From positions 1-54,929 of the IMG/VR virus record IMGVR_UViG_3300046383_000025: a stretch of 54,929 nt of DNA; one strand, written 5' to 3'. Shown piece by piece: positions 7,701-26,962 of this stretch. Position 1 is the stretch's first letter; each line of letters opens with the position of its first letter. The position numbers were made by a program, and so were the translations under genes. This DNA comes from a virus (taxonomy: Duplodnaviria > Caudoviricetes). Under the pieces are notes generated by a model. That model saw only the letters and a list, made by a program, of their open reading frames with translations. It was not told where the DNA came from and made no database searches.

Positions 7701-7767
7701 ATCAACGGGCCCCGCCCATATACCGCCATATCCCGGGAAAACAGGCTCCCCGCGCCAACAAGCGGCC

Positions 7768-10238: not shown

Positions 10239-10631
10239 TTCTCGATGTGCTGCTATTCGCGTTGTTCTTTGCCGGCTTCTGCTATTGCGTCTCGCACAAC
10301 CATGACGACGAGCTGTACGAGCCCGCCGGCGTCGTCTGCTTGATGCTGATGTGTTGGGCCTGGCCGCTCGGGTTCGCCTATTTCATCGCGCTCGTGCTCG
10401 GCGCCGCGATGCTGCTCACGATGGTCATATGAACGAGATACAGATCGAGCAGCTCGTGCCCGGCGGGATCAAGGCAACGGACCATATCCACAAGGGAAGG
10501 AACGACGGCACGTGCTCGCGCTGTCGCAAGATGCCGGCCGAGGACGACGTGCCGCTGATGTTCTGGGCGAAGCAAGGCACCTGGCTGTGGATCTACTGCG
10601 AAAAGTGCCTCGGCGTCGAGCCGGTGCATTG

Positions 10632-11635: not shown

Positions 11636-11637
11636 TC

Positions 11638-12525
11638 ATGACGAAGATCCGAACCGACGAGGGCGCGCTCGGCCGCACGCTTCAGACAAAGCGCGCCAAG
11701 ATCAAAGACGACGATACGTGCGTCTGCGAGACGCGCCTGCAGATGCCGGTCAAGCGCGAGGAATTCGCCACGCTCGCGGGCCTTCCGCCCGAAGTCATCG
11801 AGACGCTCTACACGGAGGAGGGCGCGCCGATCGCGAACCTCGAGATCCGCGTCGAGAAGCGCGAGCTGTCCGTGAACGGCAAATGCTGGCGCGGCGAGGG
11901 CAAGCACGCGGCGGAACTCAAGCTCAAGAAGGCGATCGCGAGCGTGCTGCGATTCAAGCTCGAGCCGTCCGGCGCGATATTCATCTGCACGGTGCGATGG
12001 CGGGCCGCCGGCGACGAGGTCGAGGACGTCAAGGATCTGCTCGGCCAATGGTGCTCGCTCGATCTGTCGCTCATGTTCGTCCAGGGCCAGCAAGAGAAGC
12101 TCGACCTGGGCGGCGGCAGCACGAAGCACACGACCACGACGCTGACGGTCGTCGATGCGCCCGTGCATACCGAATGCTGCGGCGTCACGCGCGAGACCTG
12201 TCTCGCCGGCGTCGCCGCGGGCGAGGCGAAGTGCTGCGAGAAGTGCGTGCACGAGCGGCCGCTGCGCCCCGACGAGGATCTGCCCGCCGGCGTGCCGCCG
12301 ATCCGCAAGCTCGCCCCGTCGGATCAAGAGCCCGCCACGACGCGGCTGCGCGAGCGCGTGAACGCTCTCGGCCTCGGCTACGCGGTCCCAGACGGGCCGC
12401 GCGTGTGGTTCGCTTTCTCGCCCGCGGAGCTGCAGAAGATCATTCGGTTCTGCGACCGGCGCGAGAACGGCGAGACGCCGAACCCCCCGGCTTCACTGAA
12501 GCAGTTTAAGCAGAAGAAGGAATAG
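11638..12525 (+). CDS. Hypothetical protein with an internal Cys cluster
   Basis: Start MTKIRT after GAGG; HTECC...C...CCEKC.H. Confidence 0.6.
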   Translation: MTKIRTDEGALGRTLQTKRAKIKDDDTCVCETRLQMPVKREEFATLAGLPPEVIETLYTEEGAPIANLEIRVEKRELSVNGKCWRGEGKHAAELKLKKAIASVLRFKLEPSGAIFICTVRWRAAGDEVEDVKDLLGQWCSLDLSLMFVQGQQEKLDLGGGSTKHTTTTLTVVDAPVHTECCGVTRETCLAGVAAGEAKCCEKCVHERPLRPDEDLPAGVPPIRKLAPSDQEPATTRLRERVNALGLGYAVPDGPRVWFAFSPAELQKIIRFCDRRENGETPNPPASLKQFKQKKE

Positions 12526-12527
12526 AC

Positions 12528-12845
12528 GTGCTGCAGCTTTGGCGAAACGTCGGCGAGCGCATCATGATCGGCGACGACGTCGTGCTGACGCTGGTCTCGA
12601 ACACGAACGGTGTCGAGGCGCGCGTGCAGATCCAGGCGCCACAGATCGCCGACGGCCCGCGCATCGCGCGCGTCGCCTTGCGCGAGCCCTACCGCCTCAC
12701 CGCCGAGATCTCGTTCACGCTCGATCCCATCGAGCGCACCGGCGCCCGCTTCCACATCAAAGCGCCTCGCGAGGTTCAGATCTACCGCGAGGAGATCTAC
12801 AACGAAAAACTACAGGAGCGCGGCATTGACCCCCACAACCGTTGA
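12528..12845 (+). CDS. csrA: CsrA/RsmA-family translational regulator, tandem two-domain form
   Basis: Unit 1 MLQLWRNVGERIMIGDDVVLTLV...ARVQIQAP; unit 2 ...EISFTL...ARFHIKAPREVQIYREEIY. Confidence 0.85.
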   Translation: MLQLWRNVGERIMIGDDVVLTLVSNTNGVEARVQIQAPQIADGPRIARVALREPYRLTAEISFTLDPIERTGARFHIKAPREVQIYREEIYNEKLQERGIDPHNR

Positions 12846-14256
12846 GCTTGGCTATGCGGTCGGCACTGGCGAGCGCGTCGAGATCCCGATCCGACACATG
12901 GTGGTCACCGGGCAGACGCAAGAGGCCGGCAAGACGACGACACTAGAGGCGCTGATCGAGCGCGCGGCGATCCCCGCGATCGCATTCCTGACGAAGCGCG
13001 GCGAGCGCGCCTTCGGCGAAGGCCGCCGGATCCCGCCGTACTTCCGGGAGAAAGCCGATTGGCAGTTCGTCAGCTCGGTGCTGGAGTCGATCCTGCTCGA
13101 GCGCATGAAGTTCGAGCGCGCCTGGATCATGCGCGTGACCAAGGCCGCCAAGACCCTCGCCGACGTGCTGCGCAACTGCAAAGAGCAACGCAAGCAAGCG
13201 CGACGCGGCATCGACGAGAGCATGTACATGCAGCTCGAAGCGTACCTCGAGATCATCGTGCCGCGCGTCGCGCGCGTGCAGTGGGCCAAGACCGTTGACC
13301 TGCAGCCCGGGCTCAACATCTGCGACCTGAGCAACCGCGACACATTCCCGCCGGAGCTGCAGGGCCTCGTGATGCGCTCGGTCATCGAGTGGATCTACGA
13401 GCATGCGACCGCGGCGATCACGATCATCCCGGAGGCTTGGGAATTCGTGCCGCAGTCGCGCGGCTCTCCAGTCAAGCTCGCGGCCGTCGAGCTGATCCGC
13501 AAGGGCGCGGGCCTCGGCAATTACGTTTGGCTCGACAGCCAAGACATCGGTGGCGTCGACAAAGAGATCTTACGGTCGTGCCCGGTGTGGCTGCTCGGCG
13601 TGCAGCGCGAGACCAATGAGATCAAGCGCGTGCTCGACAACATCCCCGCCGGCGTCAAGAAGCCGCGGCCGGCCGATGTCTCGATGCTGAAGAAGGGCGA
13701 ATTCTTCGCGTGCTTCGGCGAGCACACGATCCGGACATACGTCCGGCCGAAGTGGATGGACGCGGACGAGGCGCACGAGATCGCATGCGGCTACAAGATG
13801 GCCCGGCCGCCGCCGGCGCCGATCATTCGCGCCGACGATCCCTGGCCGCCCGACGTCGGCGTGCAGATGATCGAGGAGGAGCTGCGCGCGAAGATCCGCG
13901 CCGACGTGCTCGCAGAACACAAAAGCGAGCTGACGGCGGCCGAGGAGCATGGCCGGCTGAAGGGATTCGAGCAGGGTTACGCCGCGGCCGCGGCCGCGAT
14001 CACCGGCAAGGTGACCGGCGTCGTCAAGACGGGCGAGGCCTTCGTCGAGGAGTTGCGCGCGCTCGCGCGAGATCTCGCCGCGCGCGCGGCCGTATCCGCT
14101 AACACGCTCGAGATTGCCCCGCCCGGGCCCGGCCGATTCCGCTATGCCGCGGACCCGGAGCGGATCGGCTCCACGCCGGAACACCACGACAACGCCGCCG
14201 GGCAGCCAAAGCTCGATCGCATCATCCATCTGCTCGAAACACGGAGAACGCTGTGA
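12826..14256 (+). CDS. HerA/FtsK-like (DUF87-type) P-loop ATPase
   Basis: TTG start after AGGAG; HMVVTGQTQEAGKTT Walker A; IIIPEAWEFVPQ Walker B; IRKG..LG..VWLDSQ. Confidence 0.8.
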   Translation: MTPTTVELGYAVGTGERVEIPIRHMVVTGQTQEAGKTTTLEALIERAAIPAIAFLTKRGERAFGEGRRIPPYFREKADWQFVSSVLESILLERMKFERAWIMRVTKAAKTLADVLRNCKEQRKQARRGIDESMYMQLEAYLEIIVPRVARVQWAKTVDLQPGLNICDLSNRDTFPPELQGLVMRSVIEWIYEHATAAITIIPEAWEFVPQSRGSPVKLAAVELIRKGAGLGNYVWLDSQDIGGVDKEILRSCPVWLLGVQRETNEIKRVLDNIPAGVKKPRPADVSMLKKGEFFACFGEHTIRTYVRPKWMDADEAHEIACGYKMARPPPAPIIRADDPWPPDVGVQMIEEELRAKIRADVLAEHKSELTAAEEHGRLKGFEQGYAAAAAAITGKVTGVVKTGEAFVEELRALARDLAARAAVSANTLEIAPPGPGRFRYAADPERIGSTPEHHDNAAGQPKLDRIIHLLETRRTL

Positions 14257-14666
14257 GCGAAGAAAAACTCGACCGGATCCTCGCGCTACTCGAAGGCCTC
14301 GACGAGGAGCAGCTCTACCAGCGCGTCAAGGCCCGGCTCGCGGAGGAGGCGCCCGCGCTGCTGAAGGTGCTCACCGTCACGCCGCAGATCCAGCTCGAAG
14401 AAAAGTTCGAGACGATCGAGGTTGACGGCAAGACGCCGAAAGGCCGGGTCGCGCGCCTGATCCTCGATGGCTGGTTCGACACGCCGAAGAATGCGAACAA
14501 GGCGACCGAGGAGATCAATCGCCGCGGCGGCGCGCTCGTCGCCGCGCGCGTATACGAGGCATGCGATGCGCTCGTCGCGCTCGGTTTCCTCTACAAGCAA
14601 AAGCTCGCGAACCGCAGCTATGCCTACGTCGTCGTCGAAGGCATGAAGGCGAACGTGCGCGCATGA
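14253..14666 (+). CDS. Winged-helix-like protein coupled to the ATPase
   Basis: GTGA overlap; KGRVARLI.DGWFD.P....EI.RRG...LV.LGFL. Confidence 0.55.
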   Translation: MSEEKLDRILALLEGLDEEQLYQRVKARLAEEAPALLKVLTVTPQIQLEEKFETIEVDGKTPKGRVARLILDGWFDTPKNANKATEEINRRGGALVAARVYEACDALVALGFLYKQKLANRSYAYVVVEGMKANVRA

Positions 14667-14945
14667 TCGGCTCGCGACAATGAAGCCCGCTTATTTCAAA
14701 ACGTGCCGATGCGGGCAGCGAATCGTGATACTAAATACGAAGCGCGGTAAGCGGCTCGCCGTCAACGTGGAGCCCAAAGGCCACGAGGCATACCGATACC
14801 GCGGCGTCGCGCGAGTCGAGCAAATGTACGAGTGGGGGCAGCATCAGCCGCACCTGCTGACGTGCACGAAGCCATACGACAAGGCGACGCAAAATAGAAA
14901 GAAGTTCGTCTAGGCTCGTCCAACAAAACCACGGAGGTTAGTCCC

Positions 14946-16463
14946 ATGTCCCAAGAACACCGCGAAATTCTACTCGCGCAGCTCAAGCCCTCGGCCACGG
15001 AGGCGCAAGCCATGCGCCGCAAGCAATTCGACAAAGGCGCGCTGCGCGAGCTGGCCGACTCGATCAAGCTCTCCGGCGTCGTGCAGCCGATCGTCGTGCG
15101 CGAGATCCCGACGGCCGGCAAATCGCCCGGGCACTACGAGATCGTCGCCGGCGAGCGCCGCGTGCTCGCGGCCGGCATCGCCGGACTCGAGCGCATCCCT
15201 GCGATCGTGAGGGAGCTCGACGACCAGGGCGTCGCGCAGATCCAGCTCATCGAGAATCTGCAGCGCGAAGGCCTCGCGCCGATGCACGAGGCTACCAGCT
15301 ACCACGAGTTGATCGAGGAGCACGGCCTCAAGCATGAGGACGTCGCCGCGCGCATCGGCAAGTCGCTGCGCTACGTCTACATGCGATTGAAGCTGCTCGC
15401 GCTCGCCCCGCCCGTGCGCAAGCTGCTCGCGGATGGAGTGATCGAGGTCAGCATCGCGGAGCGAATCGCGCGGATCCCGACGCATGCGCTGCAGCTCGAA
15501 GCGGTGCGCGACATGGAAAGCCGCGGCATGACGGTCAAGGAAGCCGAGGCGCACATCGCCAAGAACTACATGACCAAGCTCTCGACGGCGCACTTTCCGA
15601 CCGCGGACGCGACGCTCAAGGGCGGCCCCTGCGGCACGTGCCCGAAGCGGACCGGCAATCAGTCGCAACTATTCGCCGACGTCGGCGACGACGAGATCTG
15701 CACGGACTCGAAGTGCTTCACTGACAAGACGCGCGAGCACGGCGGCCGGCAGATCGCCGCGGCGAAGGCCAAGGGTCAAAAGACGATCGCCGGCGCCGAG
15801 GCGAAGAAGATCGCGGCCTACGGCTTTCGGTACAACGATCACGTCGGCCCCTACTATCTGCTCACCGCGAAGCCCTACTTCAGCGGCGCCGGCGAGACGC
15901 CGGTCAGGCAGATCCTGAAGGAAGGCGCGGAGATCGTGCTGTTCCAGGATCCGGAGACAGGCCGCGCGCGCGAGGTCGTGCACGAGAGCCACATCAAGAA
16001 GCCGAAGGTCTCGCACTCGATCGACCGCTATCAGAGCCAGCAGCGAGCGAACGCCAAGCGCGCGAAGTACGAGAGCGCCGTGCGGCGCCGGATCTTCGAC
16101 GAGGTCCGACCGAAGCTGAAGCCGCCGACGCTGCGCCAGCTCGCGGAGATCTGCGCCGACGCCCTCGACTACGAGGCGCGCGAGATCCTGCACAAGATCG
16201 AGAACCCGGACTCGAAAAAAGGCTCGATCTACGTCGGCGACTGGATCAAGAAGTACGTGGCCGGGCTGAAGGGCGACAAGGCGCTGCAGCAGTTCATCTC
16301 GATGACCTACGTTCTCGACGAGGTCCACGTGAACAGCTACTCGCTGAGCCGGAAGATCCCGCGCCTCGAAGCCGCCGCGAAAGCCGCCGGCGTCAGCGTC
16401 AAGAAGATCCGCGCGGAGCTGAAGCCCAAGCCGAAGAAAAAGGCCAAGGGAAAACGCAAGTGA
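14946..16463 (+). CDS. ParB/RepB/Spo0J-family protein (long, PRTRC-ParB-like)
   Basis: RKQFD..ALRELADSIK..GVVQPIVVR...YEIVAGERR..A...ENLQRE.L; C..CPKRTG...C.D..CF. Confidence 0.9.
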   Translation: MSQEHREILLAQLKPSATEAQAMRRKQFDKGALRELADSIKLSGVVQPIVVREIPTAGKSPGHYEIVAGERRVLAAGIAGLERIPAIVRELDDQGVAQIQLIENLQREGLAPMHEATSYHELIEEHGLKHEDVAARIGKSLRYVYMRLKLLALAPPVRKLLADGVIEVSIAERIARIPTHALQLEAVRDMESRGMTVKEAEAHIAKNYMTKLSTAHFPTADATLKGGPCGTCPKRTGNQSQLFADVGDDEICTDSKCFTDKTREHGGRQIAAAKAKGQKTIAGAEAKKIAAYGFRYNDHVGPYYLLTAKPYFSGAGETPVRQILKEGAEIVLFQDPETGRAREVVHESHIKKPKVSHSIDRYQSQQRANAKRAKYESAVRRRIFDEVRPKLKPPTLRQLAEICADALDYEAREILHKIENPDSKKGSIYVGDWIKKYVAGLKGDKALQQFISMTYVLDEVHVNSYSLSRKIPRLEAAAKAAGVSVKKIRAELKPKPKKKAKGKRK

Positions 16464-16725
16464 AGCGCAGCGCGGAGGAGATCGCCGCGACGCACGCGCT
16501 GCGCGAGGCTATCAATCGAATCGAGGAGGAGCTGCGCAACATGCGCCGCGTCGTCTACGCGACCGTGCTCGCGGCCGGAACGCTCGTCGGCGGCGGCGGA
16601 TGCGAGGTCCGCATCCGCCGTGACATCCTCGTGAACCTCGACGATCGCGGCGTGCTCGAGCAGGATCGAGATCCCGCGACCGGCGACATCATCATGCGCG
16701 CCCTACCGCCGCCACCGAAGGAGAC

Positions 16726-17322
16726 TTGATGGGCACCGTCGCAAGCATCGGCCTCGACTGGCTCGTGCAGTCGCATCGCCTCGACACGTTCGTCGAGAGC
16801 GGCACGGGCCACGGGCACAACCTGATCCGCGCGCTGCAGTGGCCGCAGCTCACCGCATTGCACTCGATCGAGATCGACTATCCGACGCATCACCGCGCCG
16901 CGGTCACGTTCTCGAATGAGCCGCGGGTCAAGCTGTATCACGGCGACTCCTCGCAGATCCTCGGCGCGATCGCGAGCGAGCTCTCGCCGCAGCGGCGCGT
17001 GCTGTGGTATCTCGATGCTCACTTCGCCGGCAGCGGCCGGATAGAACCGCTCGCAATGGTGGTCGATCGAGATCCGCGCGAGCTGGTGCCGCTGCAGCGC
17101 GAGGTCGTCGGTCTGCGCGGCCGCCGAGATCTCGCCGGCGACGTCGTCATCGTCGACGATCTCTGTCTATTCGAGGTCGGCCCGTATGAAACCGACGCGC
17201 CGCAGCTCCGCGAGCAGCTCGGCCTGCAGTCGCTCGGCTGGCTCGATCATCTGTTCTCGCGGACGCACGAGATCTCGAGACTCACGCGCGACGGCGGCTA
17301 CTGGGTCGCGAGGCCACGATGA
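16726..17322 (+). CDS. Class I SAM-dependent methyltransferase
   Basis: TFVESGTGHG, HSIEID, YHGDS, WYLDAH, VVIVDD. Confidence 0.75.
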   Translation: MMGTVASIGLDWLVQSHRLDTFVESGTGHGHNLIRALQWPQLTALHSIEIDYPTHHRAAVTFSNEPRVKLYHGDSSQILGAIASELSPQRRVLWYLDAHFAGSGRIEPLAMVVDRDPRELVPLQREVVGLRGRRDLAGDVVIVDDLCLFEVGPYETDAPQLREQLGLQSLGWLDHLFSRTHEISRLTRDGGYWVARPR

Positions 17323-18418
17323 ACAAGACGACGCCGGCCACGACACACGGCTGCAATTTTCCGGGCTGCGATCGGCAGATTCGCCGCGAGCATTGGGCGT
17401 GCGACGCGCATTGGTGGGTGATTCCGCTGTCGCAGCGCAATCGACTGTCGCGCGCGTGGCAAGCATTGAAAGCCGTGCGCACGGCAACGGCGGCGGCGCC
17501 GGCGGTCGCGCGCGCGGCGATCGCCGAATACCGCGCGGCCGAGGCCGACATCATCAAGTTCGCCAAAGGGGGCAAGAGTGCAAGTCGATAACCGGATCCT
17601 CGCGCGCATGCGAGAGCTCTCGATCTACCAGCGCGCCGGGCTGATCTCCTCTTACACGCGATTCGATAACGGGCAGATCGACGAGCTGCACATCAATCGC
17701 GATATCCAAACGCTGACGGCGTTCATCGACGCGACTGGCGAAGGCCTGCCCGACGACATCTGCCGCGAGTGTCTCTGTCAGACGTACGGACCGGGCGACG
17801 TCGGCGGCCACAACTGGGGATGCTCGAAGAACCCGCCCGACTCGTACAAGGCGCGCCCGCCGCTGATGAAGAAGAAGCGCAAGCGCCGCTGATGTACTGC
17901 ACGAAAATGAAAATCGGCGCGACGACGGCGATCGTCTGCCACGGCGGCCGGCGGCCGCGCGAGCAGCTCTGCCTTTGCGGAAAGCCGGCGACGCGCCTAT
18001 GCGACTGGATCATCGCGAAGCGCGGGAAGCGCATCGTGCGTTGCTCGGCGCCGATGTGCGACGGCTGCTCGATCCGGCCAGCTCCCGAAAAAGATCTCTG
18101 CCCGACGCACGGCGCAGAATGGAACAAGCGCGCGAGCAACCCAGACCGCGAGGCGGCGACATGATGTGCGAGATCTGCGGCTGCACTGATGACGCGGCCT
18201 GCGTCGATCCGGTCACGCGCCGGCCCTGCGCGTGGATCGCCGAGGGCCTCTGCAGCGCGTGCGAGTTTGCGCCGCTCGCTTGGTCGGCTCCGGAGCTGCC
18301 GCGGCCGCTCGCCCCGCCCATCCTCCTCGACATAGGCCCCCGCGGCGCCTGGCGGCTCCGCGCCTTGACGGCCGCCGAGGCCGCCCATATCGCCAGCCTT
18401 CCGCCGGGCAGCCTATAA
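17319..18418 (+). other. Four small Cys-rich (zinc-finger-like) phage genes: 17319-17591, 17578-17892, 17892-18164, 18161-18418
   Basis: HGCNFPGC...ACDAHW; CREC...HNWGC; CLCG..ATRLCD...C.AP.C..C...LCP.H; CEICGCTDDAAC...LCSAC. Confidence 0.6.
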
Positions 18419-18478
18419 GCGGTTTTACGCCGGCCCTGGACCCCGCGAGTTTCCTAGGCCCCCCGGCTTTTTTGCTGG

Positions 18479-18523
18479 AAATGTGAACTAGGTCCCACCT
18501 ATAGGGGGGGATCGGCCTATACT
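18479..18523 (+). promoter_or_regulatory. CRP-family box plus -10 (class II promoter P1)
   Basis: AAATGTGA-ACTAGG-TCCCA centred 18489.5; TATACT at 18518 (site at about -40.5). Confidence 0.7.
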
Positions 18524-18583
18524 TCCTCCCATGCCCGGCGAGATGCCGCGGCGAGAACCAGGAACCACGGAGGACCTAGGACC

Positions 18584-19150
18584 ATGACCAAGACGAAATT
18601 CCCGCGCTGGATTCCCCAAGGTGCCGAAGCGATCACGCGCGAAGGCGTGAACGCGGTGTGCTACCTGTACGCCTCGCGCAGCTCGCGCCCCGCGGTGCTG
18701 ATGTATGGCGGCAACCGATCGAAGGCGGACAGCCACTACAGCTACCGCAGCGAGCAGGAAGCCCGCGACGCGGCCTCGCGCTACCTTGACGGCCAAGCGG
18801 CGAGCGCCGTCTACAAGGCCGAGCAGCGCGTCGCGCGCAACCGTCCGCACACGCTCGCGGTCGGCTCGATTCTCGCGTGCTCGTGGGGATACGACCAGAC
18901 GAACGTCGATTTCTACGAGGTCGTCGAGCTGCACGGCGCCGCGTTCCTTTCGGTCCGCAAGATCGCGCAGAAGGTCGTCGAGAACCAGCAGAGCAGCGAG
19001 CGCGTCGTCGCCTGCCCGGGCCAGTACTGCGGCGAGCCGATGCGCAAGCGCGCGACGGCCGGCAACGCGATCCGGATCGCCGACTACGCCAGCGCCTACG
19101 AGTGGGACGGCAAGCCGAAGCATCAGACCGCGTTCGGGTGGGGCCACTAG
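18584..19150 (+). CDS. Conserved-looking phage hypothetical protein
   Basis: Strong SD; VGSIL..SWGYDQTNVDFYEVV motif. Confidence 0.75.
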   Translation: MTKTKFPRWIPQGAEAITREGVNAVCYLYASRSSRPAVLMYGGNRSKADSHYSYRSEQEARDAASRYLDGQAASAVYKAEQRVARNRPHTLAVGSILACSWGYDQTNVDFYEVVELHGAAFLSVRKIAQKVVENQQSSERVVACPGQYCGEPMRKRATAGNAIRIADYASAYEWDGKPKHQTAFGWGH

Positions 19151-19190
19151 GCCCCGCCCTCTCTCTCACCACACCACGGAGGTCACTGCC

Positions 19191-19409
19191 ATGTCGCTCA
19201 ATCCGAACCAAGCCCGCGCCCTTGCTCTCGTCGTCGAGGCCGTCGTCGAGGCCGTCAAAGCGGCCGGTCCGAACGGCGCGCCCGGCGGCACGCTCTACGC
19301 GGCGCTGATGTCGCAAGGCTGCACGCTGAGCCAGTTCGAGAGCCTGATGGGCGCGCTCGTGCGCCTCGGCAAAGTTCGCCGCGAGGGCGAGCTGTACTTC
19401 GCCGCCTGA
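19191..19409 (+). CDS. Small winged-helix-like protein
   Basis: GAPGGTLYAALM..GCTLSQFE.LM.ALV..G.V. Confidence 0.65.
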   Translation: MSLNPNQARALALVVEAVVEAVKAAGPNGAPGGTLYAALMSQGCTLSQFESLMGALVRLGKVRREGELYFAA

Positions 19410-19440
19410 ACCACCACCACACGCCACGGAGGCCAAGACC

Positions 19441-19956
19441 ATGAACGACCTTTTTTCAAACTACCGCCCGGAGCCCGCACGTGCTCCGATCCCGCAGCCG
19501 CCGCCCGCGCCGCGCGCGTCGGTCGGGCTGCCGAGCGTCGCCGGCGTCGTCGAGCTGCTCGCGCACGCTGCCGAGCACGGCCTGAAGTACCCGAAGCTGC
19601 GCCTGCAGCTCGCCGACGGCACACCGCTGCGGATTCACGTCGCCGGCGAGCGGAGCCGCACCCCCGGCTACTTGATGCTGACGGACGGCGGGAAGTATCC
19701 GGACAATCTGTACTTCGGCCGGATCTCGCCCGCGGGCGATCTCGAGATCGGCCGCGACGGCCACCAGCGTCGCGAGCAGCTCGTCGCGCTGCTCGAGCGC
19801 CTCGCCGCGGAGCCGGCGAAGGTCGCCGCGGAGTACGGCAAGCTGACCGGCAACTGCTGCTTCTGCAAGCTCACGCTGACCGATGCGCGCTCGACGGCCG
19901 TCGGCTACGGCCCGATCTGCGCTGGCAAGTTCGGCCTACCCTGGGGGGCGCCATGA
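19441..19956 (+). CDS. DUF6011-domain protein
   Basis: YGKLTGNCCFC..TLTD.RS..VGYGPICA. Confidence 0.8.
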   Translation: MNDLFSNYRPEPARAPIPQPPPAPRASVGLPSVAGVVELLAHAAEHGLKYPKLRLQLADGTPLRIHVAGERSRTPGYLMLTDGGKYPDNLYFGRISPAGDLEIGRDGHQRREQLVALLERLAAEPAKVAAEYGKLTGNCCFCKLTLTDARSTAVGYGPICAGKFGLPWGAP

Positions 19957-20312
19957 GCGCCCCCGTTCTGCTGCGGCTCCTCGATCTCGTCGGCACGTCC
20001 CCGAACCTGCGATGCGACCTGCGCACGCGCGACGTGCAAGGCGGGCTGATCTATAGCCACGAGGATGAATGCGCCGACGTCGGCACGCTGGAGCGGGTGT
20101 GGATTCGCGACAAGCGCGACGCTCGCCGCTCTCAGCGCTGGCTCTGCTGGACCTTCCGCCGCGACCTGCCGCGCCGCCAGCGCTCGACGGTGTCGGACTA
20201 CTCCGCGCTGCTGATCGAGGAGAACGGCCGCAACGTAGTGACGGAGCTGTCGCACGATCCCTACCTGCTGGCGCTGGAGGCGCCCGGCTCCTCGTGGGTC
20301 GCGATCCGGTAA
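19953..20312 (+). CDS. Hypothetical protein
   Basis: ATGA-coupled to the DUF6011 gene; ends at the next promoter. Confidence 0.55.
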   Translation: MSAPVLLRLLDLVGTSPNLRCDLRTRDVQGGLIYSHEDECADVGTLERVWIRDKRDARRSQRWLCWTFRRDLPRRQRSTVSDYSALLIEENGRNVVTELSHDPYLLALEAPGSSWVAIR

Positions 20313-20356
20313 ATGCGACCTGGATCACAGTACGCCCGGGCCCGCCCGGGCATACT
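20311..20356 (+). promoter_or_regulatory. CRP-family box plus -10 (class II promoter P2)
   Basis: AAATGCGA-CCTGGA-TCACA centred 20321.5; CATACT at 20351 (site at -41.5). Confidence 0.8.
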
Positions 20357-20414
20357 CTCTCCCATGCCCGGCGCACGCCGCGGCGACACCAGGAACCACG
20401 GAGGACCTAGGACC

Positions 20415-20729
20415 ATGCAGAACCCCATCGAGAAAGGCACGCTCGTTCGGATCACGACGGCGAACGGCGGCGACACTGTCGCCTACCTCGTCGAGACGTA
20501 CCGCCCGACCTACGGCGTGCACCTGGAGCGCAACGGCCGCCCGTTCTACGTCGAGGCCTCGCGCCTGCGCTCGATCGCGATCGCGATCGACGACGACGAC
20601 GTCATGCGCACCTGCGAGGCGCTGCGCGCGTGCGGCATGTCGCCGCTCGACCGCGAGCTCTGGGCCGAGGAACACGGCCGCCACTACTCCGCGGGCGCTA
20701 AGCGCCGGCTATTCGGGGCGCGGTCATGA
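20415..20729 (+). CDS. Hypothetical protein
   Basis: Start MQNPIE after GGAGG in the repeated leader. Confidence 0.65.
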   Translation: MQNPIEKGTLVRITTANGGDTVAYLVETYRPTYGVHLERNGRPFYVEASRLRSIAIAIDDDDVMRTCEALRACGMSPLDRELWAEEHGRHYSAGAKRRLFGARS

Positions 20730-20930
20730 GCCGCGCGATCGCCGACACCTTCGCGGGCGAGCTTTGGAGGCGGTGACCCGCTGGATCCACCGCGCGGCCG
20801 TCGTCGTGCTGGCCGCGTGGGTGATCCTCGTCGCCTATCAGGTCGGCCGCGCGGTCGGCCGCGAGGAAGGCGCCCGCGAGGCCGACCGGGTCTGCTACTG
20901 CGGCCGCCGGTGATTAAGTGAAATTGCCGG

Positions 20931-20976
20931 AAATGCGAACTGGATCACGCCCGCGCGCGCGGGCCCGGCGCATACT
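20931..20976 (+). promoter_or_regulatory. CRP-family box plus -10 (class II promoter P3)
   Basis: AAATGCGA-ACTGGA-TCACG centred 20941.5; CATACT at 20971 (site at -41.5). Confidence 0.8.
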
Positions 20977-21032
20977 CTCTCCCATGCCCGGGCGATACCG
21001 CCCGCGGCGATACCAGCCGAGGAGGCTAGGAA

Positions 21033-21611
21033 ATGAGCGACATGACCCCCGGACAGAAGGCCGCCGCGACCCGCAAGGCTCGCCGCGCCGCCCAAGCCAG
21101 CCAGCCCCAGCTCGCCGCGCCGATCGCGTCGAAGCTTACCGGGCTCTGCATCCGAATCGGCGACACCTTCCGCGACGCCACGCGCGACGAGGTCATGGAT
21201 GCCGCCGCGCAATACCTGCTGCCCGAAGCCCGCGGCCGGATGCTCGCGACGCCGTCGGACTCGATCGACTTTTTCCGCGCGCTCTGCGCGGGCCGCCAGC
21301 ACGAGACCTTCGCGATCGCGTTCCTCGACACGCGGCACCGTGTCATCACGGTCGAGGCGCTGTTCAAAGGAACGATCGACGGCGCGACGGTCTATCCGCG
21401 CGAGGTCGTGCGCCGCGCGCTGGAAGTCGGCGCGAGCGCGGTGATCCTCGCGCATAACCATCCGTCGGGCATCGCCGAACCGTCGGAGGCGGATCGCTCG
21501 ATCACGCTCAAGCTCGCGAAGGCGCTCTCGCTCGTCGAGATCCGCATGCTCGATCACGTCATCGTCACGAATGCCTCGCACGTCTCGATGGGCGAGCGCG
21601 GCCTGATCTAA
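21033..21611 (+). CDS. radC: RadC-like JAB-domain protein
   Basis: E.F...FLD...GTIDGATVYPREVV..AL...A.AVILAHNHPSG..EPS.AD...LDHVIV. Confidence 0.95.
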   Translation: MSDMTPGQKAAATRKARRAAQASQPQLAAPIASKLTGLCIRIGDTFRDATRDEVMDAAAQYLLPEARGRMLATPSDSIDFFRALCAGRQHETFAIAFLDTRHRVITVEALFKGTIDGATVYPREVVRRALEVGASAVILAHNHPSGIAEPSEADRSITLKLAKALSLVEIRMLDHVIVTNASHVSMGERGLI

Positions 21612-21639
21612 CACCAGCCACACCACGGAGGTCCCTGCC

Positions 21640-22005
21640 ATGTCGATCAAAGTGTTTCACCTGCGCCCGCTGACGGACGACGAGCACAACCTCGTGAACG
21701 CCAAAGGATGGGACGCGTCGCCGGAGCTGCAGCGTCGCAGCGAGATCACGCTGTTCGCGACGGTCGGCCCGATGCGCGACGCCTGGAAGTCGGGCGACTA
21801 CGTGCTCGTCGCCGAGGTCGCGGTGACGAATCTCGAGCGCGCGTACGAGCTGACCAACCACATTGACCGCGACTGGACGACTAACGCCGGCGTCGCCGCG
21901 CACGTCTCGCGCGTTCGCAGCACGAGCATGGGCGACGTGATGCAAACGGCCGACGGCAAGCTGCACGCGGTCGCGCGCTTCGGCTTCGAGGAGCTGCAGC
22001 CGTGA
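21640..22005 (+). CDS. YodL-like hypothetical protein
   Basis: Y..VAEV...LE.AYELTN...RSTSMGDV. Confidence 0.6.
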   Translation: MSIKVFHLRPLTDDEHNLVNAKGWDASPELQRRSEITLFATVGPMRDAWKSGDYVLVAEVAVTNLERAYELTNHIDRDWTTNAGVAAHVSRVRSTSMGDVMQTADGKLHAVARFGFEELQP

Positions 22006-22903
22006 ACCTCAAAGCGATCAAACGGCCGGGCGGCGACTATGCCCTCGGCGAATGGGGCCGGAACTGGACCGCCGACCGCGCCCTCGCCTACCGCTTCCGA
22101 TTCGAGGACGACGCGCGCGAAGCCGCAGCGCTGATGGATCACGGCGGGCTGACCGTCGTTGACATCGACGACGGCGACCGCGTGCTCGCGACGACCGAAA
22201 CGATCGACGCGCTGCGCGAGCGGCTCGCCGACATCCGCCGCAAAACCATAGAGGAGTAGAGATCATGCCCAAGCGACTGCACTTGACCCAAGTCCCGATC
22301 CCGCTCGACGAGATGCCAGAACTCCGCGGCCCGGAGGCGCGCGAGAAGATCGAAGCCATGCGCAACGATTGGCCGCAGCGTTACGAGGTTCGCAAGGTCG
22401 TCGGCTCGACCGCACCGAAGATCCACTCGCATCTGAGCGAGGAGCAGGTCGCGAAGTATTGCGCCGACGAATCCTGGCAAGTGGAGATCACATGAAAACG
22501 AACGAGAACAAGGCCCGATGGCGTCGCTTCCAAGAGCTGTGGCCGCGGCAGTCGCGCGCGGAGCGGACGGCCTATCTCGACGCCAGGAGCAGCAGCGATC
22601 GCGCCGCTGTCGTCGATCGCTGGATACGGAGCGCGCGCCAATGCCGCTAACCAGCGAGCTCACCGTCGAGGGCGTGCTGCTGCACAAGCACGCCGGCGGC
22701 GACGGCTATCACTACTACCGCGGCACGATGCACGCGACGGCCGTGACCTTCCGCCCGACTCTCGGCGCGAATGGCAAGCCGCTTGGCTGGCGCTGCTACG
22801 ACGGCGCGCCGGCCTGCATCGCGACTGGCGAGACGCTCACGCTCGCCGTGCAGCGCGCCGACTACAGCCTAGGCCTGCGGGCCGAATCGAGGAGACCGAA
22901 GCC

Positions 22904-23131
22904 ATGACGACACCTAACCCGTTCACGCTGCCGACGACGCCGCATGCGCCGCAGTTTCACACGGACGACGTCGAGTACTTCCGCAAGCTATGCGAGGCCA
23001 CGGGACTTTCGTCGCGCGCGATCGCCCGACGGATCGGCGTCGATGCCGGACAATTTCGCGGCTATCTCTCCGGCGCCCGCACCTGGCCGTATGTCGTGCA
23101 GTTCGCCGTCGAGCGCCTCGCCGATCGCTAA
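22904..23131 (+). CDS. Small HTH regulator, last gene of the P3 operon
   Basis: EYFRKL....GLS.RAIARRIGV....FR.YL.G...PY.VQFAVE.L. Confidence 0.7.
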   Translation: MTTPNPFTLPTTPHAPQFHTDDVEYFRKLCEATGLSSRAIARRIGVDAGQFRGYLSGARTWPYVVQFAVERLADR

Positions 23132-23553
23132 CAGGTCGGGTTGGTCGGCTCCGTGAGGCAGAGCAGCGCGTGCTGCGACGTGGCGATCCGATCCTCCAGC
23201 TCACGCTTGAGGCGCTTGCTGACGTCGTTCTCGCCGTTCTGCGACTCCCAGAGCTTGGTCTGCGACAGCTCGCCCTGCAGCCTCGACAGCTCTTGCTGCG
23301 CGAGGAACACACGGACTTCGACGGTCGCCTGCGTCGCCGCATCGCTCGCCGCGCTCGCCTTGTCGCCGGCGATCTTTGCCGCCTCGACCGCGCCCTTGAC
23401 CTCGGAGCGCAGCTCCTGCGCCTGCGCCGTCGTGATCAGATGCTTGGGCAGATGGTCCGACGCGAGCCATGTATGGAAGCCCCACAGCCCGATGACGATT
23501 GCGACCGTTGACCCTCCCCACTTCAGAATGCGATCCGTTGTGACGACGGCCAT
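23128..23553 (-). CDS. Membrane-anchored coiled-coil protein (i-spanin-like)
   Basis: N-terminal TM (GGSTVAIVIGLWGF), long heptad helix, two C-terminal Cys; end of the lysis cassette. Confidence 0.5.
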   Translation of the reverse strand: MAVVTTDRILKWGGSTVAIVIGLWGFHTWLASDHLPKHLITTAQAQELRSEVKGAVEAAKIAGDKASAASDAATQATVEVRVFLAQQELSRLQGELSQTKLWESQNGENDVSKRLKRELEDRIATSQHALLCLTEPTNPTC

Positions 23554-23780
23554 TAGCCGATCGCCGCCTGGATCGCTTTGCGCGAGGCCTTGATGGTTGC
23601 GACCGACGGCGCGCCGAGCGCCTGCCACTCCTCGGCGAATTTCTGCATCGTCGCGTCGACGTCGCGGCCGGCTTGAACGGCGGTCAGCGCGTTGTTGATG
23701 ATCGCGGCTTGGTCGTGCTTGCCCTGTTCCTTCGCCGCGCCGGCGAGGATCTGCAAAAGAATCGTTGCCCATGTCGGCAT
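23553..23780 (-). CDS. Small hypothetical protein
   Basis: Coupled to both neighbours. Confidence 0.55.
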   Translation of the reverse strand: MPTWATILLQILAGAAKEQGKHDQAAIINNALTAVQAGRDVDATMQKFAEEWQALGAPSVATIKASRKAIQAAIG

Positions 23781-23785
23781 GGCGG

Positions 23786-24199
23786 TTACCTCGCGTTGAT
23801 GACGTTGACGAGAGCGGTGACGAGCGGCACGAACGCCTGCGCTGCGGCGGCGACGTCGGCCGCGGTCTGCGCATTCGTCGCCGCCTCGTATGCTTCGATT
23901 GCCGCGTCGGTTTTATACGCGGGCCCTTCGTCGCAGTCGGCAGTCGCCGTGCGCGCGGCGAGCTCGCTGCTCGAGCACACGGTCACGCGATACGCTTCGC
24001 GCAGTCGCGCCTTAGTCGCATCGCTGACCGCCGGATCGGCGACCAGCTTCGCGACCTCGCCGCCGATCGCGTTGTGATGAAGCAGCACGGCCTTCGCGAA
24101 CTCGACGGGCGTCGAGGCCTGCGAGTAGAGCTGGCGTGTGCCGGAGCAAGCCGCGATCGCGACGATCGCGACCGCCAGCACGAGGAGACGTTTGACCAT
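23786..24199 (-). CDS. Lipoprotein (possible o-spanin or exclusion lipoprotein)
   Basis: MVKRLLVLAVAIVAIAA-C lipobox. Confidence 0.7.
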   Translation of the reverse strand: MVKRLLVLAVAIVAIAACSGTRQLYSQASTPVEFAKAVLLHHNAIGGEVAKLVADPAVSDATKARLREAYRVTVCSSSELAARTATADCDEGPAYKTDAAIEAYEAATNAQTAADVAAAAQAFVPLVTALVNVINAR

Positions 24200-24397
24200 G
24201 TTACGGGCCTCTCTTTGCTTGGGTTTTACGGGGAACGCACGCGCCTTATAGCATGGCATCCGCGCGGCGCCTACGGCCGGCGCCGGCGGCCTATGCCCTC
24301 CTCCCCGCCCGCAACGGCGCCGCCGGCCTCCGTTCCCAAGGCCCTCCCCGGGATCTCGCCCCCTAGGCCGTTTTAAGCGGTCCCGGCTTTCGGCCGG

Positions 24398-24443
24398 AAA
24401 TGCGAACTGGATCACGGCGCCCGCCCGGGCCCGCGCCCACAAT
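24398..24443 (+). promoter_or_regulatory. CRP-family box plus -10 (class II promoter P4) driving an inverted moron operon
   Basis: AAATGCGA-ACTGGA-TCACG centred 24408.5; CACAAT at 24438 (site at -41.5); predicted +1 at about ATG 24451. Confidence 0.75.
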
Positions 24444-24450
24444 ATCCCCC

Positions 24451-24666
24451 ATGAGCTACCTGCTGACATTCGTCCCCAAGACCGCCGCCTACCGCGCCCA
24501 CGCGGCCGGCTGCTCGGCGGCGATCTCGACCAAACGCCAGGTGCGTCTCGATCAGACGTTCGAATCGGTCGCCGCCGCCCGCGAGTGGGCCCACGCCGAC
24601 GAGAGCGCCAAGGCGGGCCAGCCAGCCCGCGCGAATTTCAAGGCCTGCGCGTGTACCCATGCGTGA
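24451..24666 (+). CDS. Small His/Cys protein, probably leaderless
   Basis: MSYLLTF...AH..GC...KAC.C; no SD, ATG lies at the predicted transcription start. Confidence 0.6.
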   Translation: MSYLLTFVPKTAAYRAHAAGCSAAISTKRQVRLDQTFESVAAAREWAHADESAKAGQPARANFKACACTHA

Positions 24667-24823
24667 GCCCTCCCTCATCGACCGGATCGTCGAGCAGAAC
24701 GATGCCCTTTGGGCCTTCCTGAAGTCCGACGGCTTGTCGCGCGAGGAGCGGCTCGAGCTGCTCAAGCGCGCCTTCCCCGGCGCGAAGTCGCTGCAAGAAT
24801 CCGACGGCGAGGTCCCGCCGTGA
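24659..24823 (+). CDS. 54-aa hypothetical protein (not in the supplied ORF track)
   Basis: MREPSLIDRIVEQNDALWAFLKSDGLSREERLELLKRAFPGAKSLQESDGEVPP; its TGA overlaps the GTG start of the GGDEF gene. Confidence 0.6.
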   Translation: MREPSLIDRIVEQNDALWAFLKSDGLSREERLELLKRAFPGAKSLQESDGEVPP

Positions 24824-25350
24824 ACCTCGACCGCCTGCGCGAGACCGCCCGCCAGCTCTCCGACGAGCAGCTCGTCGAGGCGCTCTACCGCGACCAGGTC
24901 ACGGGCCTGCTGAATCGCCGCGCCTTCGGCCAGAGCCGCTCGCAGATGCTCGCCGTTCTCGACCTCGACTCGCTCAAGTGGGTGAACGATAACCACGGGC
25001 ACGGCGCGGGCGACGCGCTGCTGCAGGCGCTCGCGCGCGAGATTGTCGCCGCGTTCGGCGCGCATCGCTGCTACCGCCTCGGCGGCGACGAGTTTGCAGT
25101 GCGGGCCGACTCGGCCCTCGATCTCTTGCGCGTGCTGCGCGCGGTCCGGCTACGCTTCCCCGGCTTCTCGTTCGGCATCGGCCGCGATCTCCCCGCGGCC
25201 GACGAGGCCCTGCGCTTCGAGAAGGCCCAGCGGGAGCGAGTCGGACTGCGCGCCGCTCGCGGCCAGCGGCCGACGATGCTATGCGCTGCCGTCTCGCTGC
25301 AGCTCGTCGACGAGCGCTCGCACGATCCCCGCGATCATTCCTTGTCCTGA
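24820..25350 (+). CDS. Stand-alone GGDEF diguanylate cyclase
   Basis: DQVTGLLNRRAF...LDLDSLKWVNDNHGHGAGDALL...YRLGGDEF...SFG...ADEAL..EK. Confidence 0.92.
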   Translation: MNLDRLRETARQLSDEQLVEALYRDQVTGLLNRRAFGQSRSQMLAVLDLDSLKWVNDNHGHGAGDALLQALAREIVAAFGAHRCYRLGGDEFAVRADSALDLLRVLRAVRLRFPGFSFGIGRDLPAADEALRFEKAQRERVGLRAARGQRPTMLCAAVSLQLVDERSHDPRDHSLS

Positions 25351-25946
25351 CCGCAGACCTCGACGGCGCGATTGAAGCGCGCCTCGGCGGCGTCGCGCTG
25401 ACTCTCGACCGCCGAGCAATCGGCCTTCGCCGGCTCGACGACCGGCGGCGCGCCGAACCCCATGCAGACCTCGACGGTGCCGAACACGTTCAGCGCCTCG
25501 GCCTGACTGCACCACATGAAGCGCGCGTGATCGAGCAAGCCCATCCCCACGGCCATGCGAATCAGCTCGCGCTGCACGCATCCCGGGATCTCTTGCGTCT
25601 TGCCGAACGACACGCCGGCGCCGGGCGAGCTGCCGCCGAGAGACCAGCCGCGCAAGCACGGCGCCGTCGGCGTGATCTCCGGGGCGATCGCCGCGGGCGC
25701 GCTCGCCTCGTAGTTGAACGCGAGCGCCTGCTCGAGCGTGGCGCCGCTCGTCGCGGTCGGATTCGCCGAGGCCTTCGCGTCGCTCGTCGAGGAGCTCTCC
25801 GACTTGCTCGCGGCGATCGACGCCGACACCGCGGCCGCATGTGCCGCGGCATCTGCGCGCGCCTCCGGATCTTCGGCCGGCGGCTTGTTCGTGGCGAGCG
25901 CCGGCGCCGCGATCGCGACCGCGGCGAGGAGGAGGAGCGCGCGCAT
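25335..25946 (-). CDS. Secreted Ser/Ala-rich, Cys-containing protein in the lysis cassette
   Basis: MRALLLLAAVAIAAPALA signal; 6 Cys. Confidence 0.65.
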   Translation of the reverse strand: MRALLLLAAVAIAAPALATNKPPAEDPEARADAAAHAAAVSASIAASKSESSSTSDAKASANPTATSGATLEQALAFNYEASAPAAIAPEITPTAPCLRGWSLGGSSPGAGVSFGKTQEIPGCVQRELIRMAVGMGLLDHARFMWCSQAEALNVFGTVEVCMGFGAPPVVEPAKADCSAVESQRDAAEARFNRAVEVCGQDKE

Positions 25947-26329
25947 TAGCCGCCCTTCGACGGCGGTTGCTCGTGCGAGCGTGACCAGCCGGCCAGGCTG
26001 TTCGCCGTGTAGCCGCCCAAGATGACCGCGGCGAAGTTGAGTTGGTCCGACATCAGCAACACGAGGAAGCCGGCGCCGTTGCCGCCGAGCATGAGCAGCG
26101 TCTCGGCCCACGAGAACGTGTACGGCGTCCCGGCTTTGTTGGCATCGACGGCGTTCTCGAGAATCGAGCCGGCGGATCCCAGCAACATCAGAACGAACAG
26201 CGCGACGGGCGTCTCGAGAATGCCCTTGATGTCGTCGGCCGTCGGGCCCTGCGCGAGCACGGCGAACGCGAGGAGGAACACGGCGATCGCGAGCACGAAC
26301 TGCAGACCGTAGCGAAGCTTGAGCGTCAT
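25946..26329 (-). CDS. Holin-like multi-pass membrane protein
   Basis: 3-4 hydrophobic segments directly downstream of the endolysin. Confidence 0.6.
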   Translation of the reverse strand: MTLKLRYGLQFVLAIAVFLLAFAVLAQGPTADDIKGILETPVALFVLMLLGSAGSILENAVDANKAGTPYTFSWAETLLMLGGNGAGFLVLLMSDQLNFAAVILGGYTANSLAGWSRSHEQPPSKGG

Positions 26330-26377
26330 GGTAGGTCCTCGTTGGTTTGCGTCACACGCGGTTGCGACGAGCGGACT

Positions 26378-26962
26378 CTACCCGGGCGTTCGATCCCCCG
26401 CCAGCCGGCGCGCCGCGGCCTCGAGAAAGCCCGCCACGCGGTTATTCCAGCCGGCGGCATTCACCGCCTGCAGCGCGACGAAGCCGGCCTCGCGCGCGCG
26501 GGCGAGCTCGCGATCGCTCGACACGAGCCGGCCGCACTTGCGCGCACGCTGCGCGGCCATCCAGAGAAAGAGGCCGAGCGGATCCGCCGCGTTGACCGCC
26601 GCCAGCGTGAGCGGTCCGATCTTGCCGTCGGCCTTCACGCCGACGCCTTGCTGCAGCCACATCGCCGATTGCGGCACACCATGCAGCACGCCCGCGTCGA
26701 TCACGATCTCGCGCAGCGCGTCGTCGAGGATCTCGGCGAAGCGCGGGCCCTCGATGTGGCGGAAGTGATAGAAGTCGCGCGCTTGCTCCTCCGTGATCGC
26801 GGCGACGTCGGCCGCGGTGGCCGCGGGATTCTTCGAGTACTCGCGCCAGCTCGCGAGCGTGATGCCGCCCTTGGTCGGGCCGCCGCGATCGGCGGGATGA
26901 TCGGTGAACGCGGGCCAGCCCTCGCGCGCGAGGATCTCGCCGATGATCTCTTGCTCGGTCAT
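26378..26962 (-). CDS. Endolysin, glycoside hydrolase family 108
   Basis: IL.REG...F.DHP.DRGG.T..GIT...D.GV.HG...LQ..VGV.ADG.IGP.TL.A...GW.NRV. Confidence 0.92.
   Translation of the reverse strand: MTEQEIIGEILAREGWPAFTDHPADRGGPTKGGITLASWREYSKNPAATAADVAAITEEQARDFYHFRHIEGPRFAEILDDALREIVIDAGVLHGVPQSAMWLQQGVGVKADGKIGPLTLAAVNAADPLGLFLWMAAQRARKCGRLVSSDRELARAREAGFVALQAVNAAGWNNRVAGFLEAAARRLAGDRTPG

Follow-up and report, generated by a model that had tools for sequence, protein, structure and literature searches.

Enterobacterial promoters that depend on CRP, of class II or class I, are textbook systems, as are the sites of Vfr and Clp, and the release of Clp from DNA by cyclic di-GMP (c-di-GMP) is established. 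Amongst phages, a promoter box that recurs in one phage and is specific to it is usually recognised by a phage factor, and the middle and late promoters of phage Mu, which lack a -35 element and carry a dyad site overlapping the -35 region, are activated by Mor and C. For phage T1 it is already known that host CRP represses several promoters; those of pir, dam and recE are regulated by host cAMP-CRP (PMC6737242). Here we describe five promoters, P1 to P5, in the viral record IMGVR_UViG_3300046383_000025, whose whole stretch of 54,929 nucleotides (nt) is referred to below as the window. Each of them carries a CRP-type box in front of an operon, and a class II-like, activator-dependent promoter family is well supported by their sequences.

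As in the class II promoters, the phage box is a dyad TGYGA-N6-TCAC with an AAA left flank, centred at about -41.5 from the predicted starts on promoters without a -35 element, and the spacer to the -10 is likewise GC-rich and unconserved; one copy, that of P5, is displaced upstream by a further 31 bp or so while keeping to the same helical face, as in class I promoters. The phage promoters differ from enterobacterial CRP promoters in their location on a phage, in their five paralogous copies, in the weak right half and flank and in an extra CCGG on the left. They share with the Mor- and C-activated promoters of Mu the missing -35 and the dyad site overlapping the -35 region, where Mu has a dedicated activator; however, no Mor-family gene was found here and the box is CRP-like rather than Mor/C-like. 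In T1, host CRP acts on several promoters of one phage and couples their expression to the metabolic state of the host, and the same is proposed here; however, CRP represses in T1, whereas activation is predicted here, and the targets here are accessory operons rather than a lysis-lysogeny regulator (PMC6737242). Literature searches found no report of a multi-operon set of class II-type activation in a phage.

Box, -10 block and spacing

The window was scanned with the pattern AAATGYGA-N6-TCMC, allowing at most one mismatch, and the expectation was taken from 100 shuffles. Five matches were obtained, all on the + strand, of which four are exact and one (53447-53464) has a single mismatch, against 0.40 expected (standard deviation 0.60); none of the 100 shuffles reached five. 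The four boxes and the degenerate fifth reported in the initial annotation were thus recovered at their positions. Each box stands before an operon and is oriented toward the downstream genes. The elements of the family, with scores against a 22-mer CRP consensus described below, are as follows.

18479-18496, + strand: box of P1, AAATGTGAACTAGGTCCC, centre 18489.5; exact match; 17/22 to the CRP 22-mer, core 9/10
20311-20328, + strand: box of P2, AAATGCGACCTGGATCAC; exact match; 17/22; overlaps the TAA stop of the preceding gene
20931-20948, + strand: box of P3, AAATGCGAACTGGATCAC; exact match; 15/22
24398-24415, + strand: box of P4, AAATGCGAACTGGATCAC; exact match; 15/22
53447-53464, + strand: box of P5, AAATGCGACGTAGCGCAC, centre 53457.5; one mismatch; 13/22
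18456-18469: terminator-like hairpin just upstream of the P1 box
18518-18533, + strand: P1 -10 TATACT, C-rich discriminator and conserved ATG; start predicted at 18530/18531 from the -10
20351-20356, + strand: P2 -10 CATACT, followed by a leader with four GGA motifs
20971-20976, + strand: P3 -10 CATACT, followed by a structured leader
24438-24443, + strand: P4 -10 CACAAT
53518-53523, + strand: P5 -10 TACACT
7768-7807, + strand: box-less comparison promoter, TTGCCG-N18-TAGACT, then 7 nt, then the GTG at 7805; adjoins a repressor-like gene (7285-7683, - strand)

P3 and P4 share an identical 20-mer from which P2 deviates at two positions, the 12-mer CCGGAAATGCGA is common to P5, P3 and P4, and an extra CCGG directly precedes the box in four of the five copies. 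A second pattern, YAYAMT-N2-CYCCCATG with up to two mismatches, describes the -10 block and gave six matches against 0.82 expected, exact at 18518, 20351, 20971 and 24438; the block of P5 at 53518 carries two mismatches, and a match at 33886, also with two mismatches and lying inside the tape-measure gene, was taken as chance. The -10 hexamers of P1-P4 match TATAAT at four to five of six positions, with A2 and T6 kept. Counted from the start of the box, the -10 begins after 39 nt in P1 and after 40 nt in P2-P4; counted from the box centre, it begins after 28.5 nt in P1 and after 29.5, 29.5 and 29.5 nt in P2-P4, the same distances as those first reported. The box centre thereby falls at -40.5 to -42.5, depending on the predicted start chosen. 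In P5 about 31 nt more separate the box from its -10 than in the other four promoters, which gives a class I-like position of about -72.5/-73.5 on the same helical face.

The strongest internal evidence comes from comparing the copies with one another. Amongst P1-P4 the 22 nt of CCGG plus box have a mean pairwise identity of 0.83, and the 16-nt stretch that begins with the -10 and ends with the conserved ATG has 0.79; the 21-nt spacer between box and -10 has 0.37 and the 22 nt upstream of the box 0.30. Since two conserved blocks keep a fixed distance across a drifted spacer, the pattern argues for selection on the box, the -10 and the spacing alike. These promoters had been described as lacking a recognisable -35, and the hexamers 17 nt upstream of the -10 (CCACCT, CAGTAC, CGCCCG and CGGCGC) indeed agree with TTGACA at one of six positions each. 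A scan of 7000-26500 for consensus sigma-70-type promoters returned no site. Unlike P1-P4, the box-less promoter at 7768-7797 has a -35 (TTGCCG); it is likely the early rightward promoter of the phage, a function that we infer.

P1-P5 therefore probably depend on an activator, and the following mechanism is proposed. Five transcription units would start at one promoter type, in which a YAYAMT -10 is followed by a C-rich discriminator, transcription begins at a purine 7 nt beyond the hexamer, and the 22-bp CRP-type box CCGG-AAATGYGA-N6-TCMC would stand in place of the -35. At about -41.5/-42.5 the boxes of P1-P4 would have class II geometry, and that of P5, about three helical turns further upstream, class I geometry. 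RNA polymerase would be unable to use these promoters alone and would be recruited by a dimeric activator of the CRP/FNR family, presumably supplied by the host because the phage encodes none. The accessory operons (RadC, DUF6011, an HTH protein, that is helix-turn-helix, and a minimal GGDEF cyclase) and a clamp/DUF5131 operon would follow the second-messenger state of the host. The motif, its spacing and likeness to CRP sites, the lack of a -35 and of a phage CRP, and the gene content are observed; where transcription begins, whether an activator is needed and which protein binds are inferred. If a host CRP-family protein does activate, an accessory block that includes RadC, the GGDEF cyclase and the sliding-clamp operon would be tied to the nutritional or second-messenger state of the host. 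The five paralogous copies also amount to a natural mutational series from which the binder's sequence requirements could be worked out, since the half-site cores are conserved, the spacer is free to vary and one copy is displaced by about three helical turns.

An inverted repeat, CCGGGCAT ... ATGCCCGG, was additionally seen to bracket the -10 and discriminator in P2 (20343-20371), with a near copy in P3 (20961-20993); it is not in P4 and is weak in P1. It could be an additional operator or a by-product of GC-rich sequence.

Likeness to CRP sites and the possible binders

The CRP consensus used for scoring was a symmetric 22-mer, taken as general knowledge rather than from a tool, and it was compared with 54,908 window positions. 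P1-P4 are the top four positions with 17, 17, 15 and 15 of 22, the next best score being 13/22 at five positions, P5 among them. A composition model gives a probability of 1.8e-6 per position for at least 15/22. Over the 10-bp CRP core, P1-P4 score 9, 9, 8 and 8 of 10. The symmetry-related pairs G5/C18 and G7/C16 are invariant in all five boxes, and P5, whose N6 spacer deviates from that of P3 and P4 at four of six positions, retains AAATGCGA and CAC; both the invariant pairs and the persistence of the half-sites in P5 favour recognition of a dyad. Other readings of the box, namely sigma-54, ECF (extracytoplasmic function)/sigma-E, sigma-32, LexA, DnaA box, IHF and FNR, were dropped on inspection by eye against the known consensuses, the second element or key positions being missing; for FNR, G5/C18 is of the CRP type and not of the FNR type.

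A two-block pattern built from the phage copies found four loci in 185,579 species genomes, all in Gammaproteobacteria (a Shewanella, two Pasteurellaceae and one metagenome-assembled genome, MAG), and seven loci, five of them distinct, in metagenomes. An A at position 19, which the pattern does not specify and which continues the palindrome, occurs in six of the nine distinct bacterial sites. These matches appear to be mostly real-looking bacterial CRP sites, not relatives of the phage. A metagenome fragment (L142, 1663-1710, 64% GC) has the box-like AAATGTGACCTGGATCAC followed by CACAAT, about 130 nt upstream of what reads from its open reading frames (ORFs) as a kdpF-kdpA-like operon; it is bacterial and not a phage relative.

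In six-frame searches of the phage at E<=1, no match was obtained to HTH_Crp_2 (PF13545) or to the cNMP-binding domain (PF00027), in line with the original statement that the phage has no CRP-family gene, nor to sigma-70 region 2 (PF04542) or the Mor family (PF08765). No match was found either to the T7-type RNA polymerase (PF00940), which is uninformative since 14 control genomes gave none. On the strength of the sequence likeness, the phasing and the missing phage CRP, a host CRP-family protein is favoured as the best single explanation of what binds the box, and we hold it tentatively, at somewhat short of even confidence. Of the host CRP-family activation put forward at the outset, the class II-like architecture, the CRP-type box and the lack of a phage CRP have stood; a host protein as the binder stays tentative, given an asymmetric box and four candidate binders encoded by the phage itself:

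9813-10238: HTH_38 protein, E 2.2e-6, in the early operon
888-1421, + strand: HTH_38/HTH_23 protein, E 2e-5, in the P5 operon
22904-23131, + strand: HTH_31 protein, E 5.9e-6, 26.9 bits (just below the 27-bit cut-off), last gene of the P3 operon
7285-7683, - strand: repressor-like protein

A GcrA-like reading of 9813-10238 was also considered and dropped, PF07750 giving no match.

Several observations weigh against a host CRP-family binder, beginning with these four HTH proteins. With up to two mismatches the bare 10-bp core has nine matches in the window against 9.5 expected, so the signal resides in the extended repeated motif. The boxes are paralogues of one cassette and not five independent events, and their resemblance to CRP sites thus counts roughly once. 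The box is asymmetric: conservation is much stronger in its left half, where AAATG and GA do not vary, than in its right; the CCGG extension is present in four of five copies, and the right flank is GC-rich without a mirror sequence. In all five copies the strong half is distal to the promoter, which is unexpected for a symmetric dimer unless inherited.

Comparison with other genomes adds to these points, for searches of IMG/VR, metagenomes and species genomes turned up no related phage that has the box, and there is no cross-genome footprint. The exact box occurs at three IMG/VR loci, all chance matches in coding regions of unrelated contigs, and the two-block pattern at none; none of 110 loci from other records has the box, the only matches being the loci of this phage (L002-L004) and the chance loci (L005-L007). 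Protein searches give distant kin only, with at most 42% identity for a P1 operon protein, 53% for the GGDEF protein and 52% for the major capsid protein. For the tail host-specificity protein there are 122 matching phage records, with identities of about 30%; in 82 of them the phage belongs to Caulobacter, Rhodobacter, Brevundimonas, Roseobacter or Dinoroseobacter, and Xanthomonas phages account for 9 of these 122 and for 10 of the 309 portal matches. The nearest large terminase (TerL) proteins are those of Roseobacter and Paracoccus phages (45%), the nearest portals those of a cyanophage (55%) and Pseudomonas phages (48%), and the nearest capsid proteins those of Synechococcus phages (49%) and an Aurantimonas phage (43%); a 476-residue early protein has no phage match. 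The tail module thus points to phages of Alphaproteobacteria rather than of Xanthomonadales, and we know of no TGTGA-type CRP protein established in Alphaproteobacteria.

The capsid protein search of species genomes gave no match, and that with TerL gave mostly Lachnospiraceae. Amongst 401 sampled genomes of one phylum, 24 have a capsid match at E<=1e-20, that of G126 being the closest with 53%; 300 more genomes from the order of G126 gave no further capsid match, and the box is not enriched over a control pattern in the five best capsid-matching genomes. A contig of a Casimicrobiaceae MAG, reached through DUF5131, has terminase, portal, head protein, DUF5131 and RusA in common with the phage at 31-47% identity; it is distantly syntenic, has 50% GC and is without the box.

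The close rival to a host CRP protein is an activator encoded by the phage: one of the HTH proteins at 9813-10238, 888-1421 or 22904-23131 would, after the manner of Mor and C in Mu, turn on delayed-early or middle operons by binding to the box, the CRP likeness being coincidental, and P1-P5 would then be an ordinary middle-promoter set. We regard this as possible, if on balance doubtful. It agrees with the general experience that repeated phage-specific boxes go with phage factors, with an asymmetric box whose CCGG extension CRP sites do not need and whose five copies all have the same orientation, and with the occurrence of the box in no other searched phage or genome, as for a private factor-site pair; moreover P1-P3 lie downstream of the early operon on the same strand, where read-through could prime a positive loop, and HTH candidates exist (HTH_38, HTH_38/HTH_23 and HTH_31). 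However, no candidate has a relative characterised as a transcription activator, no Mor-family, sigma region 2 or CRP-type HTH domain was found in the phage, and a CRP match of 15-17/22 combined with symmetric invariant G/C pairs and class II/I phasing would be an unlikely coincidence.

It is improbable that no activator is needed at all, the box being a passenger of a duplicated cassette or serving the host polymerase as a weak UP-like or upstream element. The identical 20-mer of P3 and P4, with P2 two positions off, and the near-identical leaders of P1 and P2 do suggest recent copying. However, the spacer has drifted to background identity (0.37) beside a box still at 0.83, so the box appears to be under selection; P5 keeps CCGGAAATGCGA in an otherwise unrelated context, and promoters without a -35 and with -10 hexamers matching at four to five of six positions should have poor unaided activity.

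The GGDEF protein of the P4 operon

The host CRP-family reading was originally extended to a feedback loop, in which the GGDEF enzyme made from P4 would act through a Clp-type, c-di-GMP-sensitive binder to shut the whole regulon off again. The operon concerned consists of three genes whose stop and start codons overlap (ATGCGTGA and GTGA).

24451-24666, + strand: first gene; no relative other than itself among 5.8 billion proteins
24659-24823, + strand: second gene
24820-25350, + strand: GGDEF gene, 176 residues

The GGDEF protein matches PF00990 over profile positions 3-86 of 161 with 47.6 bits, against a cut-off of 23.8 (E 2.1e-12). In the PDB it has 46 matches at E<=0.001, the best at 2e-9, and almost all of these go by the name of diguanylate cyclase or GGDEF protein. 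It carries RLGGDEF and DLDSLKWVNDNHGH, the latter corresponding to the metal/GTP-binding D-x-D...N-D. Judged from these signatures, the gene ending the P4 operon is genuine, and its minimal domain is complete with DxD...ND and GGDEF.

Short phage proteins of this subfamily are widespread, at 29 IMG/VR loci and in ten Bordetella and Pseudomonas phage records in GenBank; they are annotated in Bordetella Vojvodinavirus phages, and the matching Pseudomonas phage genes are unannotated. The Yuavirus/Vojvodinavirus proteins (Bordetella phages CN1, CN2 and LK3; Pseudomonas phages Aergia, PC1 and others) belong to the same subfamily at about 150-176 residues. For the alignment, 27 sequences were used, this phage and 26 of the 29 IMG/VR relatives, leaving out L099 and L112, whose scores equal those of L098 and L110, and L114, which is truncated. 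G89, D90, E91, D48, D50, N56 and D57 are invariant in all 27, as are DxDSLKWVND and GDE. The signature itself varies: six sequences including this phage have GGDE, twenty have SGDE and one, the locus of Bordetella phage CN1, has AGDE. With twenty SGDE and one AGDE of 27, the product of the phage subfamily need not be c-di-GMP, and literature searches found no enzymology of it. Compared with the CN1 locus (L096), the protein is 51% identical in the alignment and 53% in the best tblastn segment; its gene ends a three-gene overlapping operon behind a CRP-like box, whereas that of CN1 lies in a long accessory run on the same strand. Lysogens of LK3 overproduce biofilm (PMC8471281).

A feedback through Clp seems quite improbable to us as an addition to the host CRP-family reading. 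In its favour are the complete minimal GGDEF domain within a box-driven operon and the known release of Clp from DNA by c-di-GMP. The loop needs a Xanthomonadales host, however, to which the searches give no pointer in particular, the tail module indicating phages of Alphaproteobacteria instead, and the SGDE (20/27) and AGDE (1/27) variants make c-di-GMP only a possible product of the enzyme. Conservation of the box and the GGDEF gene as a pair was not borne out: 173.5 kb around the 29 related phage GGDEF genes contains no site of at least 15/22, against one for the control. The pairing of box and GGDEF gene is thus particular to this phage and not a conserved design.

Least probable of all is that the box is an operator through which a phage immunity or host repressor silences the operons, since, even with a repressor-like gene at 7285-7683 (- strand) and the repression of several T1 promoters by host cAMP-CRP (PMC6737242), a centre at -41.5 on a promoter without a -35 is the position of an activator, the intergenic region beside the repressor-like gene has no box, and repression alone leaves the firing of a -35-less promoter unexplained.

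Leaders, operon contents and the remaining genome

A post-transcriptional layer may be added to the promoters. The early operon contains a gene whose product looks like a tandem, single-chain form of CsrA.

12528-12845, + strand: tandem CsrA-like gene, 105 residues, in the early operon; matches Pfam CsrA in two stretches, E 8.7e-16

Residues 1-38 and 72-94 of this protein both align to CsrA/RsmA structures (PDB, about 5e-6), with about 35 residues between them. In the leaders of P1 and P2, which are nearly identical, the 45 nt next to the start codon hold four GGA motifs, a number that none of 71 genes exceeds (median 1). For the leaders of P1, P2 and P3 (18531-18583, 20364-20414 and 20984-21032) one and the same pair of hairpins is predicted, the second of which has the Shine-Dalgarno/GGA in its loop; their folding z-scores are -1.5, -1.1 and -3.5. 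Leaders with GGA in a loop have the shape of CsrA targets, so that the phage CsrA may act as a translational gate on the box-driven operons. We give little credence to the full combination, in which a host CRP-family sensor would gate five operons in class II/I fashion, the tandem CsrA would gate their first genes through GGA hairpin loops and the GGDEF protein, by altering the pool of second messenger to which the sensor responds, would close a timer or feedback loop.

An ATG lies exactly 13 nt after the -10 start in all of P1-P4 (18531, 20364, 20984 and 24451). At P1 this ATG starts an ORF of 18 codons, the TGA of which overlaps the main ATG; at P2 it shares the frame of the main ORF, and at P3 it is out of frame and runs into RadC. 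It may mark an upstream ORF translated without a leader, or be left over from duplication of the cassette. At P4 the conserved ATG (24451) opens the first gene, 7 nt after the -10 and at the predicted start, without a Shine-Dalgarno; an ORF that begins there and is linked to the next two genes fits the predicted start, and the P4 transcript is a candidate leaderless mRNA. The GTG of 7805-8020 lies 7 nt after TAGACT, the same geometry from -10 to start codon as at P4, which hints that the phage and its host use leaderless mRNAs. An extended ribosome-binding context, ACCACGGAGG, occurs 11 times in the window with at most one mismatch, against 2.9 expected, nine of the 11 on the + strand; its positions include 8132, 14928, 18564, 19173, 20395, 21622 and 53554.

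The genes behind the remaining boxes, and a cassette lying between P3 and P4, are listed below.

18531-20312, + strand: P1 leader (53 nt, four GGA motifs) and operon, starting after the P1 -10
18584-19150, + strand: P1 operon, phrog_37844; 304 IMG/VR relatives at up to 42% identity
19191-19409, + strand: P1 operon gene
19441-19956, + strand: P1 operon, DUF6011 (Pfam, E 1.2e-13)
19953-20312, + strand: P1 operon gene
20415-20729 and 20773-20913, + strand: P2 operon, two small genes of no family
21033-21611, + strand: P3 operon, RadC (Pfam, E 3.5e-41)
21640-22005, 22002-22259, 22265-22495, 22492-22650 and 22641-22907, + strand: P3 operon, five small unknowns
22904-23131, + strand: end of the P3 operon, the HTH_31 gene
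23786-24199, 23553-23780 and 23128-23553, - strand: three-gene cassette between P3 and P4, not behind a box, no Pfam family
53572-54702, + strand: first gene of the P5 operon, beta-clamp-like
75-881 (DUF5131) and 888-1421 (HTH_38/HTH_23), + strand: continuation of the P5 operon over the circular junction

Pfam bears out RadC, DUF6011, GGDEF and the HTH gene (HTH_31 just under its cut-off) as they were named from the sequence; the YodL-like gene is not borne out, as 21640-22005 has no Pfam match at E<=0.01 and a weak PHROG of function unknown. The first gene of the minus-strand cassette (23128-24199) seems, from its translation, to have a lipoprotein-like N-terminus. Divergent from P5 is a gene for 249 residues (52611-53360) with no Pfam family.

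The phage is a novel soil siphovirus with a complete genome. The DNA was sequenced from a soil metagenome; the genome is about 54.8 kb and circularly closed, the 54,929-nt window ending with a 127-nt exact direct repeat of its start, and IMG/VR classes the record as complete, with direct terminal repeats. The GC content of the window is 64-71%. Neither tRNA genes nor Rfam families were found in the window, and no integrase domain in the phage, so that lysogeny by integration is not indicated despite the repressor-like gene. The larger blocks are arranged as follows.

7285-7683, - strand: repressor-like gene, preceding the plus-strand block
7805-23131, + strand: mostly unknown early genes, with ParB-like proteins, a DUF4326 protein and the CsrA-like protein
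25335-52485, - strand: small and large terminase, portal, protease, major capsid protein, tape measure, a host-specificity tail protein like those of gene transfer agents (GTA-like) and endolysin

Within the minus-strand block, between the portal-side genes and the protease gene, a gene for a protein of 335 residues (44419-45426, - strand) contains at least nine copies of a 60-nt tandem repeat (44665-45407), which encode a 20-residue unit, approximately IAPDGVANxSALGTVALNAN, present about 12 times in the protein; it may be a head fibre or decoration protein.

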